Translations under genes and position numbers: made by a program
Shown: positions 1,749 to 23,672 of the stretch, piece by piece
How the letters are laid out: every line of letters starts with the position of its first letter
How positions within the stretch are numbered: the stretch's first letter is position 1
IMG/VR virus record: IMGVR_UViG_3300009514_001427
Length of the DNA: 28,737 nt
From: a virus
Strand: one strand, 5' to 3'
The notes under the pieces: generated by a model
What the model was told of the DNA's origin: nothing
Seen by the model: the letters and a program-made list of their open reading frames with translations, nothing else
Databases searched by the model: none

Positions 1749-3185
1749 ATGGCAAAAGCGAAGTCAGCCAAGAAGGCGAAACGCAAGGCATCGGTCAAGA
1801 AGAACAAGACCCCTGCCTTGTCCTGTCCCAACATTGTCGATTTGCGGACCCCGCATTCGACGGAATCGAGTGGGCGTCTTGCCTCCGCATTCACCACGTT
1901 TGCCGAGAAGGTAGCGGCGTGGAAAGCGGAAGTCCGCAAGCATTTTGCGGGTGGGGGCAAGGCGTCTGATCTGCCTCAGTTTGAGGCGAAGCATTTCCTC
2001 GATGCCAACAAGGGCATCATGTCTCAGAAAGCATTTGACAAGCTGGTCGATGCTTGGAATGACAGTGACGGCGTTGTTTTCCCGCCTCGCTACAACCCTG
2101 TCCTTGTGGATTTGATCCACGAGATGAACGCGACCTCGATTCGTCGTGGTTTGCTCTCGAAGCATCCTCGCCAGCCGTCCAATTGGGACGAGAAGCAGTG
2201 GGGTCCGTGGAATCTGCTGGATGAGGACGGGGAGCATACCATCCCGTCTGGCTGGTTCTTTGACAAGGCGATGCCTCGTCGTTGTCACGCCGAGACTGCC
2301 GAGAAGCTGGTCGAGGATCACGCCAAGAACATTCTCACGTTTGGCAACAACCGTTACGTTGTGGGCGACGGTACGACCGTCCGTTGCTCCCCGATGCTTG
2401 TTTGGGCGACGGCTCGTGGCAACTACCGCGCGGGTGATTCGGCTCGCAAGCGTATGTCCATCGCTGGCAACAAGGATGTCACCGACGTTGTTTTCCGCGT
2501 CGAGGATCGTCCCAACAACGGTGGTGGCGTCACGGTCAAGGGCAATTGGGGTGACATTGCCGAGTTGGTATTCCTCCCCGGACAGGCGTTGACGGCAGGT
2601 TTCCTGTTTGACGCCAAGGGCAAGCGTCTGACTGCCAAGGCGATTCGGGCGTTGGATGGCGATACCAAGGGGTTGAAGTTCAAGACGGTACGTCAGGTCT
2701 TGGACGGTCCCATCGTCGGCAAGGCGATTACCCGCGACAAGTTGTGGGCAGAGATTCAGACCATCGAGGGCAACAAGGGCATCAAGCGTCTCCGCGAGCG
2801 TGAGGGGCGTAGCGAGTCTGAGGAAGTTGATTCGACGCCTCAGAACAAGACGATGACCAACCTCAAGGTCACGACGCGCGTCTCTCCGAATGAGGCTTTC
2901 CCGTTTGGTTTGCGGGCTGCCCAATGTGATATGGTCCCGTACATCATCAACGATGAAGAGGGCGATTTCTTGATGGGCATCGTGATTGGGGATCGCTCGA
3001 ATCTGGACCACAACGTCGGCGTGAACGAAGCCAAGGCGGAAGTCGAGGAAGTCGAGGAAGTCGAAGAGACTCCCGCTCCGAAGAAGTCCCGCAAGAAGAA
3101 GCCTTCGGATGCGGCTCCCCCTGTCGAGTCTGATACGTCGGACGACGAAGCGGAAGTCGAGGAAGAGGAAACGGTCGAGGCGTAA
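1749..3185 (+). CDS. hypothetical protein with a lysine/alanine-rich N-terminal tail (MAKAKSAKKAKRK…) and an acidic EVEE-repeat C-terminus
   Basis: The long ORF 1626..3185 starts at GTG. ATG 1749 has GGAG at 1735-1738. The 415-aa antisense ORF is judged spurious. Confidence 0.7.
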   Translation: MAKAKSAKKAKRKASVKKNKTPALSCPNIVDLRTPHSTESSGRLASAFTTFAEKVAAWKAEVRKHFAGGGKASDLPQFEAKHFLDANKGIMSQKAFDKLVDAWNDSDGVVFPPRYNPVLVDLIHEMNATSIRRGLLSKHPRQPSNWDEKQWGPWNLLDEDGEHTIPSGWFFDKAMPRRCHAETAEKLVEDHAKNILTFGNNRYVVGDGTTVRCSPMLVWATARGNYRAGDSARKRMSIAGNKDVTDVVFRVEDRPNNGGGVTVKGNWGDIAELVFLPGQALTAGFLFDAKGKRLTAKAIRALDGDTKGLKFKTVRQVLDGPIVGKAITRDKLWAEIQTIEGNKGIKRLREREGRSESEEVDSTPQNKTMTNLKVTTRVSPNEAFPFGLRAAQCDMVPYIINDEEGDFLMGIVIGDRSNLDHNVGVNEAKAEVEEVEEVEETPAPKKSRKKKPSDAAPPVESDTSDDEAEVEEEETVEA

Positions 3186-3344: not shown

Positions 3345-5210
3345 ATGTCCAAAACCACCTTGACTTTTGAGGCTCACGAAGCCCTCATTATCAGCAACAT
3401 CGAGCGTCAAGCTGGCTCGGTTGGCAAGGCAATTCTTGAAGGGACGATGAATGGCATCGAAGCCTGTAACAAGGCGGATGTCTCACCCCAAGTCTGGATT
3501 CACTTCGATTCCAATGGAGCGGCTGTAGGCGAATCTGGAGCGGTCCTGCGGATCAAAGACCTTGGCTGTGGAATTCAGACGAAGCAAGAGATTCTGGATT
3601 GGTGGAAAACCTTTGGTACGCCTCACGCCGAATCCGAGAAAAAGATTTGGGCTAACTTCCGTATGGGGCGTGGGCAGTTATTCACCTACGGTCGCAACAT
3701 CTGGCGTACGGGGACGTTCCGTTTGGAGTATGACCACAATACTCCGCCTGTCGAGAGAAACTACGAATCTGACCAGCGTATCCAATTCGGATTGGAAGAG
3801 AATCTCGATGCGTTTGAAGGTTGTGAAATCGAGATTCACTTTTACAAGAATCCTGTTGGGCCTGGTGGTTCTTATGCTTCCGTTGAGGCATTGAAAGCTG
3901 ACGTAAAGCAGCAGATCGAATTCATGGAGGGAGCGATCTACTTCAATGACGAGCAGATCAATACTCCTGCGAGTTGTTGTAAGTGGGATGACGAGACGGA
4001 CGATGCCTACTTCCTGTGGGGCATTGGTACGGAGCTAACGGTCTACAACATCGGGGCGTACGTTTGTGGTTACTCGATCAGCCGCATGGGCGTTAGTGGC
4101 ATCGTGGTATCGAAGAAACAGATGCGTTTGAATTACCCGCGCAATGCGGTCATGCAAGATGCCTGTCCGATTTGGCGAGACATTCGTGACATCGTGGATT
4201 CCAAAAAGGTCACGAAGATTCGAGCGACATCGCGTCGATTGGAGTATGACGAGAAGGTTGCGAATCTCATTGATTTGCGTGATGGGAAATGCACTCTTAA
4301 AGACATTAACGGCGTTGGTTTGTTGGAAACATCTAGTGGCAAGGCTATGTCACTTCCTGCCTGCAAGTCTATTCGTTCTCATTGGACGTTTGCTCCCAAG
4401 GGCGACATGGTTGCGGATCAGCTTATGCAAGCTGGCAATGCCGTTTGCTTGTCAGACAAAGTTTTGCGGGAAATGAATTATACTGGCGATCCTGCTGGAT
4501 TCTTCGAGTATCTATTGCAGGAGGAAATCCGCAAGGCTCAGCCACGTTGGAGCGATGATACTGATAAGAATCGGGTACTCAAGGCGTGGAAGCATCTACG
4601 CAAGCTGTATCGTCCGTTTGATTCTGGTTGTGACGATGACCTATGCAATCAGTACAACCGCCAGCATACGATCATTCCAACGGAGAAGCTGTCGAAGTTT
4701 GAGCGTCGAGTCATTCGGGTCTTGTCGGCTTATGATTGTTGGCAAGGTCGTACCATCGTGATTGGTCTTAGCGATTGCTACAACGGTTGGACCGATGGAG
4801 ATTCTTACATTGCGATCAACCGCAAATACTTGAAGCGTAACTCCCCGAATTACTATCATGGAGCGTCGGCTATCGTCACGCTAATGTTTCATGAGTTGGC
4901 TCACGACGAAGATAATACCGAGACAGACGTTCATGGTCTTGAGTTTTACAAGGCGTATCATGACCTTACTCGTCATGGGAATACATGGATGATCGCAGAC
5001 ATCTACGAGAAGTTGAAAGCTGCTAAGGTCGAAGATTACGATGAAGAGCAGAAGGCGAAAGCTGCCAAGGCGAAAGAGAAGCGTGACAAGAAACTGCGGG
5101 TAGCTGCTGCCTTGAAGCCGAAAAAGGTGGCGGCGTCGATCACTCACAAGCCGACGAAGAAAGCGGCTCCCAAGACGGCTAAGAAAAAGCGTCGAGTTCG
5201 CAGATTTTAG
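3345..5210 (+). CDS. GHKL-type ATPase domain protein with a C-terminal HExxH motif and a lysine-rich H1-like tail
   Basis: N-box EALIISNIE/EGTMNGIEA, G1 box IKDLGCGI and G2 FRMGRGQLFTYG are consistent with a Bergerat fold. FHELAHDE gives an HExxH motif. The C-terminus is KAKAAKAKEKRDKK…KPKKVAA…KKKRRVRRF. AAGGGAG at 3331-3337 precedes ATG 3345. Confidence 0.75.
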   Translation: MSKTTLTFEAHEALIISNIERQAGSVGKAILEGTMNGIEACNKADVSPQVWIHFDSNGAAVGESGAVLRIKDLGCGIQTKQEILDWWKTFGTPHAESEKKIWANFRMGRGQLFTYGRNIWRTGTFRLEYDHNTPPVERNYESDQRIQFGLEENLDAFEGCEIEIHFYKNPVGPGGSYASVEALKADVKQQIEFMEGAIYFNDEQINTPASCCKWDDETDDAYFLWGIGTELTVYNIGAYVCGYSISRMGVSGIVVSKKQMRLNYPRNAVMQDACPIWRDIRDIVDSKKVTKIRATSRRLEYDEKVANLIDLRDGKCTLKDINGVGLLETSSGKAMSLPACKSIRSHWTFAPKGDMVADQLMQAGNAVCLSDKVLREMNYTGDPAGFFEYLLQEEIRKAQPRWSDDTDKNRVLKAWKHLRKLYRPFDSGCDDDLCNQYNRQHTIIPTEKLSKFERRVIRVLSAYDCWQGRTIVIGLSDCYNGWTDGDSYIAINRKYLKRNSPNYYHGASAIVTLMFHELAHDEDNTETDVHGLEFYKAYHDLTRHGNTWMIADIYEKLKAAKVEDYDEEQKAKAAKAKEKRDKKLRVAAALKPKKVAASITHKPTKKAAPKTAKKKRRVRRF

Positions 5211-9601: not shown

Positions 9602-10166
9602 CAGATATAACGCTTCAATCCGAATCGGTGGTACGATTGACAGAACCACCGACAGTCAATGCGATCCCGAGATGAGCGCTTTGAATGTGATGCTCGCCAT
9701 GATAAACGGTGCCGATGTTTCTCACGAGTGGGGAGATGCGGTGGCTGTGATCTGCGAGGGCGAGGACGATGAGTTGTTGCAGTACACCAATGATAACGGC
9801 TTGCTCGAATTCAAAGGAGAATCCGTAATCAATGGTGAGTTCGACGAGCTAGAAACATTTCTCCGCGAGCATGACATTCCGTACAACAGAAGCACCTGCG
9901 CGTATGGAGGGTATCTGGGCGAGGATGTCTACTGGATGCCTGGGATGGAGCAACCCCTGGTTATCCTGGGCGACGATCATGGGACGGATTACGTATCTAG
10001 AGAGGACATAAGCATCCTGTTGCATACGCTCAAGGAGGGGCGAGATGCGGATACGTTTGTGGACATGGCGCGTGAGTTGGTGCATACCGCTATCGAGAAG
10101 CTCGAAGAAGTTTGTCCTGATCCTCCCGACATTCCACCGTTCAAGATTGTCGGGGAAAAGCCTTGA
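9594..10166 (+). CDS. hypothetical protein, 190 aa
   Basis: GGAGG at 9581-9585; ATGccTGA overlap; stop inside the next -35. Confidence 0.65.
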   Translation: MPDRYNASIRIGGTIDRTTDSQCDPEMSALNVMLAMINGADVSHEWGDAVAVICEGEDDELLQYTNDNGLLEFKGESVINGEFDELETFLREHDIPYNRSTCAYGGYLGEDVYWMPGMEQPLVILGDDHGTDYVSREDISILLHTLKEGRDADTFVDMARELVHTAIEKLEEVCPDPPDIPPFKIVGEKP

Positions 10167-10190
10167 CATTTATTCCTCATGTGGTATACT
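10163..10190 (+). promoter_or_regulatory. sigma70 promoter P8, leaderless
   Basis: TTGACA 10163-10168, TATACT 10185-10190, ATG at 10197. Confidence 0.7.
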
Positions 10191-10196
10191 TAGGAC

Positions 10197-10478
10197 ATGG
10201 CAAAGGAAAAGATAGTTTGCAAGGAATGTGGCAGCGAGGAAGTACGCCGAGATGCTTTCGCTTCATGGGATGTGGACAAACAAGAGTGGGTTCTTCACGC
10301 CATATACGATCACTTCGTCTGCGACAGTGACGAGTGTAACGGAGAGCCTTGTGACATAAAGACAATCGAGGGCAAGGCGGGAGATTCGTCGAGCAACGAT
10401 CCGTTTGTGGCGAGCGGTAGCTCCGAGTCTCCCGCCTTGGAGCAGTTAGCTCCATTGGTCGGAGTGGGAAAGAATTAA
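10197..10478 (+). CDS. zinc-ribbon protein (CKECG…CDSDEC), 93 aa
   Basis: Leaderless ATG. Confidence 0.6.
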   Translation: MAKEKIVCKECGSEEVRRDAFASWDVDKQEWVLHAIYDHFVCDSDECNGEPCDIKTIEGKAGDSSSNDPFVASGSSESPALEQLAPLVGVGKN

Positions 10479-10493
10479 ACGCGACAAATTGGC

Positions 10494-10522
10494 TTGACTT
10501 TTACTCGCGTGTAAAGTATATT
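10494..10522 (+). promoter_or_regulatory. sigma70 promoter P9 (TTGACT-17-TATATT), drives a non-coding transcript
   Basis: TTGACT 10494-10499, TATATT 10517-10522. Confidence 0.5.
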
Positions 10523-10639
10523 CTCAGTGTGGGACGCTTCTCTTTCTTCACTGTGACATGATCGCACGCATGTCACAGCCCGTAAGGCGCGAGAGCGGGT
10601 CAACGGAACTGTTTGGGAGGTTCTTCATCCTGCACTGAT

Positions 10640-10651
10640 CTGAAATAAGCC
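10640..10651 (+). repeat. CTGAAATAAGCC motif, copy 1 of 8
   Basis: Exact 12-mer. Confidence 0.6.
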
Positions 10652-10720
10652 CAGACTACCTGCGAAAGTGGGCTCCAGTCTCTCCGATCCAAGAGATGCC
10701 ATAATCCGCGTCGGATCAAA

Positions 10721-10758
10721 ATGCCGTCCGTACGGGCAAATACGGGCGGCATTTTTTC
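10721..10758 (+). terminator. rho-independent terminator
   Basis: atgccg-t-ccgta / tacgg-g-cggcat gives a 12-bp stem with one U-G pair and loop cgggcaaa, followed by T6. Confidence 0.75.
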
Positions 10759-10770
10759 TTGGCCTTTTAC

Positions 10771-10798
10771 TTGACATTTCGTTGGGCCGTGGTATACT
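10771..10798 (+). promoter_or_regulatory. sigma70 promoter P10 (class II)
   Basis: TTGACA 10771-10776, TATACT 10793-10798. Confidence 0.7.
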
Positions 10799-10836
10799 CT
10801 AGACAGTTGGAGGAAACTCGAACCAACAGGAGACAA

Positions 10837-11853
10837 ATGATGGTAGCAGCAGTCAGTACACGACATAATGCCTTGGACAGCTTTGGGTCAACTGTCCGCA
10901 ACAAGAAAGACCCGTATGAAGCCATGAGGAAGGCTAAGGGGCTGTTTGGACTCAAGAAGATGTCCCTTGCTGAATTCTCTGGTACGCCTGCCAACCCCGA
11001 CTTACACGTCGTGGTCCGTACCGATACGGGTGAGGCTATCGGTCAAGTCGGCAACAACTACGAGGTTTTCCCGAACGAGTCATTCTTCGGACCAACAGCA
11101 GAAGCGCTGGTTGAAGCGGGAGCCGAGATCACTAAGTTCCAAATGCTGGATCGTGGGACGCGGTCTTTCATGCGTCTTGCCTGGCCAGACGATGCCAACC
11201 TGCGCATCGGCAAGCCCAAAGTCGGCGACATTGTGGGTCGTCGCGCAACACTCTCCACATCACATGACGGCAAGTACGCAGGCAAGTTCACGCTCATGAT
11301 GCTTCGCCTTGCCTGTGAGAATGGGATGACCGTCCCAGTCGGCAGCTTCGACATGAATATGTTTCATACCGTGGGCGGCAAGCAGCAGCTTGTTGAGTTG
11401 AGCAACATGATCCCCACCGTTGAGACATACGTCCGTCAGTTTCAGGTTGCCGCAGACATGATGGCGGAAGTCCCTGTGAAGGCTGGCAGTGACTTGGCGA
11501 TGAAAATCATCGGCAAGGTTGCTGACCCCAAGGGTGGAGCCAAGGATACTTCGGGTGGAACCCCGAATCTCGCCAAGTCTCGCGTCATGCGCATTGCTGA
11601 GCTTTTCGAGGGAGAGCAACCGCAGGCAGACAATGTGGCGATCAAGGATACTGGCTGGGGTCTTTATAATGCTTGCGTGGACTTTTTCACGCATGACAAG
11701 GGGACTCGTGGACAGAACGAATCGGAGCGGTTGGAGCAGCGTTTTAAGAGCTTGCTTCCGGGTGGACCTGCCCAGCGAGAGATCGTACGGGCATGGGGCG
11801 TCGTGACAGATGGATTGGGGGTCAGTAACGCAATTGCCGCAGCAGTAAACTAA
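10837..11853 (+). CDS. hypothetical protein ~338 aa; resembles the DUF932/TIGR03299 phage/plasmid-related family (from memory; motif STSHDGKYAG)
   Basis: AGGAG at 10828-10832 with tandem ATGs at 10837 and 10840. The track ORF begins upstream inside the promoter. Confidence 0.7.
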   Translation: MMVAAVSTRHNALDSFGSTVRNKKDPYEAMRKAKGLFGLKKMSLAEFSGTPANPDLHVVVRTDTGEAIGQVGNNYEVFPNESFFGPTAEALVEAGAEITKFQMLDRGTRSFMRLAWPDDANLRIGKPKVGDIVGRRATLSTSHDGKYAGKFTLMMLRLACENGMTVPVGSFDMNMFHTVGGKQQLVELSNMIPTVETYVRQFQVAADMMAEVPVKAGSDLAMKIIGKVADPKGGAKDTSGGTPNLAKSRVMRIAELFEGEQPQADNVAIKDTGWGLYNACVDFFTHDKGTRGQNESERLEQRFKSLLPGGPAQREIVRAWGVVTDGLGVSNAIAAAVN

Positions 11854-13625: not shown

Positions 13626-13716
13626 AACTATGGGAGCGTAGGAGAAGCAGGGTAGGCGTACGCAACGCCCTGTGGCGACCGATATGTGATATACGGCACT
13701 GTTGGCAGGACGCTGC

Positions 13717-13728
13717 CAGAAATAAGCA
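13717..13728 (+). repeat. CAGAAATAAGCA motif variant, copy 3
   Basis: 10/12 match. Confidence 0.45.
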
Positions 13729-13931
13729 GTGCAATGTGGGGTTGGCACCCACCGCTCCCAGCCAGAACGCGTCAGAGTTGGCACGGTTCTAGAACGTGTA
13801 ACCGAAGGCATTCGGTGATGGGCATTGCGTAGGATAGGTGGGAGGCGCTGATACCTGCATTCCGGTGTAGATGAGCCATCCTTGAAATACCACCCTTTGC
13901 CCGGCAACTCTTATTTTTGTTCATTTTCTTC

Positions 13932-13959
13932 TTGACATTTCTCCTGGCCGTGGTATACT
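13932..13959 (+). promoter_or_regulatory. sigma70 promoter P15 (class II: gttcattttcttcTTGACATTTCTCCTGGCCGTGGTATACT)
   Basis: TTGACA 13932-13937, TATACT 13954-13959. Confidence 0.7.
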
Positions 13960-13977
13960 ATAGGCAGAAGGGAGACA

Positions 13978-16412: not shown

Positions 16413-16442
16413 GCGGGGGCTGAAATAAGCCCCCGCTTTTCT
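16413..16442 (+). terminator. rho-independent terminator (gcgggggc-TGAAATAA-gcccccgc-TTTTCTT)
   Basis: Perfect 8-bp GC stem, 8-nt loop and a T-run. Confidence 0.8.
16420..16431 (+). repeat. CTGAAATAAGCC motif, copy 5 (forms the loop of a terminator)
   Basis: Exact 12-mer. Confidence 0.6.
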
Positions 16443-22596: not shown

Positions 22597-22608
22597 CAGA
22601 AATAAGCC
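22597..22608 (+). repeat. CAGAAATAAGCC motif, copy 8
   Basis: 11/12 match. Confidence 0.55.
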
Positions 22609-22733: not shown

Positions 22734-23672
22734 ATGACAAAGCAACGCAAAACAAAAGGCGACGTTTACCAGTGGATCACCGAACGAATGATCGCGGCAT
22801 TGGAAGCGGGAACGGTCCCGTGGCGGCGTCCGTGGTTGCTGATGAACGCCCCGGCGAATCTCATATCGGGCAAAACGTATCGCGGCGTCAATCTGTTTTC
22901 GCTCGCTATCGCTGGCGAAAAATACACTAGCCGATGGTGGCTGACTGCCAAGCAAGCCCGCGACCGTGGCGGTCACGTCCGCAAGGGCGAACGGTCGTCG
23001 ATGGTGGTTCGTCCGCTAGTCGGTGAGAAAACGAAAAACGGTCAGCCCGTACTCGACGCCAACGGCAAGCCACAAAAATACTTCGGTATGCGATACTCGA
23101 ATGTTTTCAACGTCGAGCAATGCGAGGGAATCGAGTATCCCAAGCCCGAAACCGGCAAGCCCGTCGATACGCTGGAAGTCTGCGAAAACATCATCGGCAA
23201 TTGGACCGATTGCCCGCCAATTGGTTACGGTGGCGACCGGGCGTATTATTCGCAAAGCGACGACCGTATCCAAATGCCAATGCGTGACACTTTCGAGGGA
23301 TCGGAACGATTCTACTCGGTCCTATTCCACGAATGTATTCACGCGACCGGACATAAGTCTCGGCTCAATCGTGACCTAACTGGACACTTCGGAACGTCGG
23401 ACTATGCCCGCGAGGAACTCGTTGCCGAAATGGGCGCAGCTTTCCTATGCGGCGTGGCGGGAATCGAATGCAAGACGGTCGATAACTCGGCAGCGTATAT
23501 CGCTAACTGGTTGCAGCGATTAAAAAACGATCATAAGCTAGTCGTCACTGCCGCCAAGCAAGCGCAAGCGGCGGCGGAGAGTATCCAAGGCATCGAAGCT
23601 CCGAAGTATGACAGCGAACCGCAAGATGGAAACGAGAGTGCCAACGCGATGGCACAAACCGTAGCGGCGTAA
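22734..23672 (+). CDS. ardC: ArdC-like antirestriction protein (N-terminal ssDNA-binding DUF1738-like domain plus C-terminal zincin metalloprotease, HExxH = FHECIHATGH)
   Basis: N-terminal …VPWRRPW…GKTYRGVNLFSL… and C-terminal HECIHATGH…ELVAEMGAAFLC are typical of ArdC/TraC1-N proteins as recalled from memory. Confidence 0.8.
   Translation: MTKQRKTKGDVYQWITERMIAALEAGTVPWRRPWLLMNAPANLISGKTYRGVNLFSLAIAGEKYTSRWWLTAKQARDRGGHVRKGERSSMVVRPLVGEKTKNGQPVLDANGKPQKYFGMRYSNVFNVEQCEGIEYPKPETGKPVDTLEVCENIIGNWTDCPPIGYGGDRAYYSQSDDRIQMPMRDTFEGSERFYSVLFHECIHATGHKSRLNRDLTGHFGTSDYAREELVAEMGAAFLCGVAGIECKTVDNSAAYIANWLQRLKNDHKLVVTAAKQAQAAAESIQGIEAPKYDSEPQDGNESANAMAQTVAA

Follow-up and report, generated by a model that had tools for sequence, protein, structure and literature searches.

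What is produced from a gap between two genes that contains a promoter and a terminator and no conserved open reading frame (ORF)? This question is raised by a locus in a 28,737-nucleotide (nt) stretch of viral DNA (IMG/VR virus record IMGVR_UViG_3300009514_001427), the whole of which is referred to here as the window. The locus occupies a 292-nt gap that extends from the stop codon of a 93-aa gene to the -35 box (position 10771) of the next promoter, which serves a gene of the DUF932 family. Our analysis indicates that the gap very probably holds a genuine structured RNA gene of a new family. The reading that we favour, with moderate confidence, is that this is a self-contained noncoding RNA (ncRNA) gene whose product acts in trans through its shape. 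Judged from its sequence, it forms a new family of a kind of element that is already known, and it matches no described RNA family. A preliminary description of the locus had proposed a promoter-to-terminator unit for a structured small RNA (sRNA) rather than for a protein, and this proposal holds: eight of the eight known copies have a promoter, seven have a terminator, no ORF is conserved, and covariation is strong.

The transcription unit is delimited by the following elements.

10494-10522, + strand: sigma-70-type promoter TTGACT-17-TATATT (-35 box at 10494-10499, -10 box at 10517-10522), matching the consensus at 10 of 12 positions

10529-10550, + strand: variable, pyrimidine-rich 5′ leader of about 22 nt, with no motif common to all copies

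10721-10757, + strand: intrinsic terminator, composed of a 12-bp stem (10721-10732/10741-10752, one G-U pair), an 8-nt loop and a U run, with an A run upstream

Both the promoter (10494-10522) and the strong 12-bp terminator (10721-10752, T run to 10757) lie where they had been described, the end of the latter being separated by 13 nt from the next -35 box (10771). Transcription is predicted to start at about 10527-10530. A discrete unit is predicted, as had been claimed, with a transcript of approximately 225-230 nt rather than the ~200 nt given originally. The promoter is plainer than the approximately 32 others of the window, since it lacks their typical TGTGG extended -10 element and ATTT. 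All eight copies have exactly one sigma-70-like promoter (9-11 of 12 positions), whose end lies 5-39 nt upstream of the first hairpin, P1, and an intrinsic terminator follows the last paired block, PKb, at a distance of 3-13 nt in all copies except one (L025). A promoter match is in itself unremarkable, as shuffled sequences yield around 16 matches of at least 9/12 per 20 kb; the fold energy of the RNA corresponds to z = -2.9. The promoter (10/12) and the fold energy, each taken alone, are within reach of chance. The unit is judged to be real because promoter, fold and terminator recur at seven other loci (the terminator with the one exception just mentioned). The leader contains a stretch, CUUUCUUCAC, that is common only to the window and its closest relative, L032.

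The preliminary description had also stated that the region holds no ORF longer than 25 aa and no ribosome-binding site (RBS). The second part stands. As to the first, the region is overlapped by a GTG-started ORF of 44 aa (10668-10802, + strand) and, on the minus strand, by ORFs of 42, 50 and 88 aa, all of them lacking an RBS and none of them conserved. Different loci have unrelated genes in front of the RNA (L032 and L039 excepted), so the RNA is not the 3′ untranslated region of one particular gene.

Searches of GenBank phages and PLSDB plasmids with blastn returned short chance matches only, and Rfam 15 contained nothing that reached its gathering score for the window region or for 15 related loci, its families of riboswitches, ribozymes, ribosomal-protein leaders and GOLLD, ROOL, raiA and HEARO RNAs included. 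At E<=10, Rfam 15 gave three chance-level matches, on the palindrome and the terminator, and the models for ribosomal RNA (rRNA), transfer RNA (tRNA), transfer-messenger RNA (tmRNA), RNase P, signal recognition particle RNA and 6S RNA had no match within 10400-10900 at the same threshold. A likeness to 5S rRNA, the sarcin-ricin loop and RNase P (GCGAGAG..GGAACUG etc.), noticed by eye, was dropped, as it was unsupported by these models. Because neither phage or plasmid DNA nor Rfam provided a match, related loci were fetched via the DUF932 protein. In total, eight copies of the element were identified: that of the window and seven in metagenomic or viral contigs. Six of the latter are placed upstream of DUF932 genes (loci L010, L011, L032 (=L033), L035 (=L036), L038 and L039). 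These copies carry CCCGTAAG....GAGAGCGGG and the near-invariant CCCGUAAGRCRYGAGAGCGGG, with the same order of elements.

The remaining copy, L025, is divergent and was obtained by a motif scan of IMG/VR.

9753-11004 of IMG/VR UViG_3300044511_000089: L025 copy, between a tyrosine integrase gene and a convergent 496-aa gene

Within the 12.5 kb fetched around this copy nothing matched DUF932, and no protein is common to the window and the L025 locus in the sequence in view. The L025 copy is located directly behind the tyrosine integrase gene, where attP sites usually lie, and this position raises the question of whether a homologous host RNA gene serves as the integration target. A search of 185,579 reference genomes with an exact 18-base pattern revealed no host-encoded homologue; the six matches in the scan of these genomes are limited to the 21-nt pattern, lie in coding or terminator contexts and are put down to chance. 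With a looser pattern, 13 loci were retrieved from IMG/VR, of which only L025 is convincing and L048 is ambiguous. The latter (2940-3080 of IMG/VR UViG_3300042452_000842; 20.6 bits) contains a P1/P2-like GGCGGCCG...CGGCCGC, CCCGUGAGCCGUGAGAGCGGG and a downstream CCACGUC, within a stretch of 72% G+C with ORFs in several frames, and is either a distant member or a chance match. DUF932 searches in IMG/VR yielded no close relatives, and exact-protein look-ups of the products of the window's flanking genes (with the chosen starts) and of the relative P0007 returned no record.

A covariance model, R1, was built from condensed sequences of six copies. All DUF932-linked copies obtain 45-68 bits with it, even L038, a copy left out of model building, and it has a single match in the window; it misaligns P1. 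In L038, the model match (59 bits, 2721-2864) is overlain by the call of a 79-aa gene (2677-2916). This "gene" is a gene-caller artefact, in which a structured RNA has been annotated as a hypothetical protein. Two additional loci, L044 (2763-2905) and L008 (3375-3531), harbor 5′-truncated copies with only the hairpins P4-P5, the 3′ strand and the terminator, decay having gone further in L008. L044 has, in place of the lost 5′ half, a small ORF resembling a membrane protein and a 3′ fragment similar to a tRNA, GTCAGTTCAAATCTGGCCCCCGCTA, in which ARAGORN calls no tRNA. The element is absent from the DUF932 loci L001, L002, L003, L012, L040, L042 and L043, which identifies it as an accessory cassette.

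The copies were aligned element by element, which revealed a common architecture: the leader is followed by P1, P2 and a short helix, Pa, that encloses P3, P4 and P5, and two pseudoknots, PKa and PKb, complete the fold. In the window, these elements are as follows.

10551-10578, + strand: P1 hairpin (arms 10551-10560 and 10569-10578), a hairpin in every copy, with a different sequence each time

10579-10599, + strand: P2 hairpin CCCG/CGGG, with the 13-nt loop L2 UAAGGCGCGAGAG (10583-10595), near-invariant in the eight copies

10586-10590, + strand: 5′ strand of PKa, formed by the L2 bases GGCGC, pairing with GCGUC at 10708-10712

10605-10607, + strand: 5′ strand of Pa, GGA, pairing with UCC at 10705-10707 and closing the P3/P4/P5 junction

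10611-10656, + strand: variable hairpin P3 (arms 10611-10617 and 10650-10656), with compensatory changes at 5/5 pairs

10657-10677, + strand: junction UA, hairpin P4 CCUGC-GAAA-GUGGG (10659-10672) and single strand CUCCA (10673-10677)

10678-10697, + strand: P5 hairpin (arms 10678-10683 and 10692-10697), whose loop bases GAUCC (10686-10690) are the 5′ strand of PKb

10698-10717, + strand: J5/a GCCAUAA, then the 3′ strand with UCC (Pa, 10705-10707), GCGUC (PKa, 10708-10712) and GGAUC (PKb, 10713-10717)

Three upstream segments thus pair, one block each, with the 3′ strand (AUCC, GCGUC and GGAUC in succession). PKb occurs in seven versions (GAUCC/GGAUC, GGUCC/GGAUC, GACUC/GAGUC, UGACU/AGUCA, GGCCC/GGGCC, GCCC/GGGC and GGUGG/CCACC), with compensatory changes at 5/5 pairs. 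PKa also covaries (C-G/U-A/U-G, G-C/A-U and G-U/A-U/C-G). Pa is 100% paired yet nearly invariant, and its covariation support is weak; a 4-bp version of this helix (CGGA/UCCG) was rejected, since its outer pair is better assigned to PKa (paired in 8/8 copies versus 6/8). Among the hairpins, P4 covaries at one pair (G-U/U-A/C-G) and has a GNRA loop (GAAA/GUAA/GCAA) in three copies, and P5 occurs as UCUC/GAGA, CCCC/GGGG or CUGCG/CGCAG. P3 varies in size from 18 to 57 nt; its apical part contains, in the window and L032 and in none of the other copies, the CTGAAATAAGCC copy (10640-10651) that had been listed in the preliminary description. The unpaired bases that are invariant comprise UAA and AGAG in L2 and CUCC between P4 and P5, and GCC past P5 is kept in 6/8 copies.

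P1 corresponds to the perfect 10-bp palindrome noted originally (10551-10578), with the arms CTGTGACATG-N8-CATGTCACAG in the window. Compensatory changes affect 5/5 of its outer pairs, one copy has a U-G pair, and its loop ranges from 4 to 32 nt. Two other early structural proposals did not survive comparison. The complementarities of a suggested pseudoknot (gccca/tgggc with agact/agtct) do exist, but the homologues do not keep them, and in the conserved model its bases are distributed over the 3′ arms of P3 and P4 and the 5′ arm of P5. A small hairpin, AUCCGCGUCGGAU, is an alternative local fold of the 3′ strand that takes part in Pa, PKa and PKb, and cannot form in L010 or L039.

The covariation analysis with homologous regions that had been recommended for this locus revealed compensatory changes in curated as well as in unedited alignments. 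In the curated alignment of eight rows (A8), standard pairs make up 97.4% of the 304 pair cells; shuffling lowers this share to 76.0%, and sliding the partners by 1-3 columns lowers it to 36-47%. Compensatory changes were found at 26/38 pairs, both pseudoknots included, a number reached by 0/500 shuffles. When unedited sequences of the 3′ domain were submitted to MAFFT and RNAalifold, P4 and P5 were predicted independently, and P4, P5 and PKb were 87.8% paired in this alignment versus 36-68% when slid. G-U pairs are frequent in P4, P5 and PKa, which identifies the plus strand as the transcribed one and points to selection on RNA rather than on DNA. As far as the aligned copies allow it to be read, selection is shown to act on base pairing and a few invariant unpaired stretches (UAAG..GAGAG, CUCC and GCC), and not on the palindrome sequence or on any reading frame.

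The genetic setting of the RNA gene bears on its possible role. The window (51% G+C) has the look of an early region devoted to host takeover, from a large, uncultivated phage or phage-like element; a DUF932 protein identical to that of the window is encoded on a 153-kb Joint Genome Institute (JGI) contig. Ten larger proteins, including the products of the genes flanking the RNA, were compared with Pfam and PHROG. Three were recognizable (the RuvB-like, ArdC-type and DUF932 proteins listed below); the others matched no family of known function, and four of them had no match at all in these databases.

626-1690, + strand: RuvB-like AAA+ ATPase gene (protein family scan)

10197-10478: 93-aa gene, upstream neighbour of the RNA gene

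10771-10798: promoter TTGACA-16-TATACT, between the RNA and DUF932 genes, serving the latter

10837/10840-11853: DUF932 gene, downstream neighbour of the RNA gene

22734-23672, + strand: gene of an ArdC-type anti-restriction protein with ArdcN and zincin-like MPTase-PolyVal domains (PHROG "anti-restriction protein", E 2e-74)

The ArdC, RuvB-like ATPase and DUF932 genes together resemble the leading-region gene set of conjugative elements, here within a phage-like early region. We found no functional study of DUF932 in the literature. The AlphaFold2 (AF2) model of the protein is confident (predicted local distance difference test, pLDDT, of 82) and has no fold match in the PDB, so it offers no clue to a partner of the RNA. 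ARAGORN detected no tRNA or tmRNA in the window or the related loci, except for one tRNA-Met in L003.

A second RNA-level feature of the window is a segment that clearly mimics part of an rRNA. Within the non-coding gap 13626-13977, positions 13816-13906 (+ strand) match the bacterial 23S rRNA model at 2125-2216, with 51.4 bits (gathering score 50) and E ~1e-12; the scores given by the large-subunit rRNA model ranged from 45 to 51 bits. We take these 23S positions to be the L1 stalk, helices 76-78. The L1-binding consensus GUAGGAUAGGUGGGAGGC...GAGCCAUCCUUGAAAUACCACCC is almost intact, and such a phage-encoded mimic of the L1 stalk could titrate uL1 or a factor that recognizes the stalk. Rfam searches revealed no copy of it in the 15 related loci.

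How, then, might the structured RNA act? Conservation is concentrated in the tertiary-structure core and the leader and peripheral hairpins drift, which suggests that the RNA most likely works through its shape. According to the reading preferred here, a host-type RNA polymerase would transcribe the RNA from its own sigma-70 promoter, and transcription would stop at the intrinsic terminator, immediately ahead of the separate promoter that serves DUF932. The conserved feature would be the three-dimensional core, with the leader, P1 and P3 free to vary. The RNA would bind a host-encoded or otherwise common partner, e.g. (i) a protein, (ii) an RNA-processing or defence factor or (iii) a small ligand, and would serve as a decoy, a sponge or a scaffold of a ribonucleoprotein, expressed from a host-takeover or accessory region; a catalytic role would be a sub-case of such shape-based action. 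The RNA seems to occur in an unrelated phage setting as well: since no protein common to the window and the L025 locus is in view, a host component or a ligand is a likelier partner than a phage protein encoded nearby. The specific role of a trans-acting binder or decoy is a good, if tentative, possibility. The location in an early or accessory region with ArdC and the L1-stalk mimic is loosely suggestive of a decoy or sponge in takeover or counter-defence; the regulatory or anti-defence role proposed in the preliminary description is conjecture. A bolder version, which we consider rather unlikely, is that of an RNA-only effector of counter-defence or takeover, moving as a cassette between unrelated phages and situated beside a second RNA decoy (the L1-stalk mimic). 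It would act as a decoy or sponge for a defence factor, an RNA-metabolism factor or an immune signalling nucleotide, or it would represent a new ribozyme class.

RNAs of this type are known from phages: tRNA-like decoys, pseudo-ToxI mimics of antitoxins and RNA anti-CRISPRs have been described. Like them, the present RNA is small and is situated in an accessory or early phage region beside genes of anti-restriction type, in a genome that also carries an rRNA-fragment mimic. It differs from them in resembling no detectable host RNA, and mimicry is for this reason a hypothesis rather than an observation. In terms of architecture, a second comparison can be made with GOLLD, ROOL, raiA, HEARO and OLE, which are among the orphan bacterial and phage ncRNAs with complex folds named in the literature (PMC12286853). 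These too are stand-alone RNAs, often of phages, with many conserved helices, pseudoknots and invariant unpaired bases, and they too were recognized by covariation before any function. The RNA studied here would be classed with them. In contrast to them, it has no match in Rfam 15, has a core of about 150 nt (versus 200-800 nt) and occurs in a few environmental phage contigs.

Several points weigh against the proposed trans-acting RNA or narrow its basis. Action by shape in trans is something that we infer from the pattern of conservation among sequences. The condensed rows of alignments A5, A7 and A8 were registered by hand to the model, with variable loops trimmed and one bulge removed, so the counts lean towards the structure; covariation in P1 and P3 is partly a product of this construction, and P2 and Pa, being almost invariant, are not tested by covariation. 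The sample consists of eight sequences, two of which (the window and L032) are close relatives. In L025, R1 aligns P1 and P2 only (21 bits), and the 3′ domain of this copy rests on the hand alignment. The copies L008 and L044, with the 3′ half only, point either to a separate use of the 3′ domain or to decay of these copies. Finally, the link with DUF932 is partly a matter of ascertainment, because 7/8 copies were found through this family; a functional tie of the RNA to DUF932 is conceivable all the same.

The main alternatives are guide-like, attenuator and ribozyme readings. A base-pairing or guide-like RNA would have its seed or guide in the variable 5′ leader, the conserved body acting as a scaffold for a protein or for stability. 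The combination of a variable, apparently unstructured leader with a conserved scaffold does resemble guide RNAs, and a perfect 13-nt complement of the leader (10534-10546) was found at 5072-5084 (+ strand; GAAAGAGAAGCGT) inside a 621-aa gene (3345-5210), with p ~0.006-0.012 by shuffling. However, nothing comparable was obtained in the other seven loci, and one match at p ~0.01 in 16 leader-versus-locus tests is what chance would provide; the power of these tests is low, as the loci hold just 4-12 kb. Moreover, no nuclease or known guide-using gene (IscB/TnpB/Cas/IS110), the expected neighbour of an omega RNA, tracrRNA or bridge RNA, is adjacent, as judged from the ten scanned proteins, and the body is far more elaborate than that of a terminator-plus-hairpin sRNA. 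A guide function is distinctly improbable.

A riboswitch-like attenuator acting in cis is highly doubtful. In this case, the core would be an aptamer that senses a ligand or protein, and the 3′ pseudoknot strand would decide on read-through into the DUF932 gene. The position of the RNA is compatible with this, as it is co-oriented with and immediately upstream of DUF932 in seven loci, and so is its form. The short-helix-closed junction, the pairing of loops with a 3′ tail in pseudoknots, the invariant unpaired junction bases and the terminator directly behind the last paired block are all features of pseudoknotted riboswitch aptamers, and orphan riboswitches that act as sRNAs exist among those with intrinsic terminators. 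However, the RNA has its own promoter and no downstream gene of its own: at every locus a strong, separate promoter of the standard type, often present in duplicate, stands between the terminator and DUF932. Inspection revealed no conserved antiterminator complementary to the terminator arm, and no aptamer model matches. The L025 copy has no terminator and is followed by a convergent gene, and within this phage group there are many DUF932 genes without the element. It is the separate promoter, together with the absence of a terminator or a co-oriented downstream gene in L025, that makes cis control of DUF932 unlikely.

Also highly doubtful is a self-cleaving or otherwise catalytic RNA, involved in transcript processing or another reaction. 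Double pseudoknots, short invariant joining strands and a GNRA-capped peripheral helix are typical of ribozyme cores and are known from the hepatitis delta virus (HDV), glmS and twister folds, and small ribozymes are common in phage genomes. As in HDV-like and glmS double-pseudoknot ribozymes, two pseudoknots pack the core and a single 3′ strand pairs with several upstream segments. The order of helices and the conserved bases are nevertheless different, no ribozyme model of Rfam 15 matches, and no cleavage site can be inferred from the sequence. In addition, processing is not needed for release of an RNA that has its own promoter and terminator.

An element acting at the DNA level, i.e. an operator palindrome, a single-strand promoter of the Frpo/ssi type or an attachment site, is very improbable. 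It would account for the perfect 10-bp palindrome and for the proximity of the L025 copy to an integrase gene, and a Frpo-type promoter was considered because ArdC and DUF932 genes, typical of the leading regions of conjugative elements, mark such regions in plasmids. The palindrome had originally been regarded as a possible operator, but its sequence differs in every copy, its loop varies (4-32 nt) and the U-G pair would be a mismatch in DNA, which argues for an RNA helix and leaves a DNA operator very unlikely. The conserved helices are rich in G-U pairs throughout, the RNA is preceded by a conserved promoter of the normal double-strand type, and folding of single-stranded DNA (both strands) gave short local hairpins only, with no long hairpin containing promoter boxes. 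Scarcely credible, lastly, is a small protein gene such as the 25/26-aa ORF MIARMSQPVRRESGSTELFGRFFILH (10560-10640). This ORF does exist, and had been named as one whose conservation and translation would speak against an RNA gene, but it has no RBS and no homologue in the other copies. Among the ORFs of the seven DUF932-linked copies no peptide or frame is conserved: every frame is broken by junction lengths that differ by 1-2 nt, and the pattern of substitutions is that of base pairing, not that of codon positions.

The window also displays features of transcriptional organization beyond the RNA gene. Approximately 32 near-identical strong promoters, TTGACAttt-N-TGTGGTATACT, are distributed along it, all on the + strand (e.g. 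at 156, 3275, 5214, 5987 ... 22662), each followed by one to three small genes. At about ten of these promoters an ATG is placed 6-7 nt past the -10 box, which suggests leaderless mRNAs (e.g. 10197, 5230, 8325, 15192 and 24191). The motif CTGAAATAAGCC, mentioned above as part of P3, occurs exactly on the + strand at 10640, 15368, 16420, 20594 and 21904, and with 1-2 mismatches at 22597, 11922 and 13717; allowing up to two mismatches, there are 10 matches in the window against 2.0 +/- 1.6 expected. As a rule it lies where a transcription unit ends, with the next promoter 35-65 nt further on, and the copy at 16420 supplies the loop of a terminator hairpin. Variants are present in relatives, e.g. 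tcccGAAATAAGtg, three times in L011. The motif may be a signal for RNA processing, termination or protein binding.

A second conserved structured spacer was observed near DUF932 genes in L004 (~3775-3912) and L040 (~2505-2600). It contains GACAGGGCAGyCGUUGAGUAG...CUCCGGCUGUCCUGUC and a long hairpin, and the L004 spacer lies inside a terminator-like stem, AUGCCG...CGGCAUUUUUU. This spacer may be another RNA family in the same slot.

To our knowledge, nearly all known anti-defence and takeover factors of phages are proteins. We know of few well-supported phage RNAs with an elaborate fold, and each of those that has been studied (GOLLD, ROOL and HEARO/omega RNA) was unexpected in its structure or mechanism. 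The RNA described here, being a small double-pseudoknot molecule (core of ~150 nt) with a defined promoter and terminator, should be easy to synthesize, probe, solve and test for self-cleavage, the binding of ligands or the capture of proteins. RNA loci of this kind are overlooked by gene callers or, as in L038, mis-called as small ORFs, and the present findings suggest that several RNA-level devices are present in the early regions of this group of uncultivated phages.

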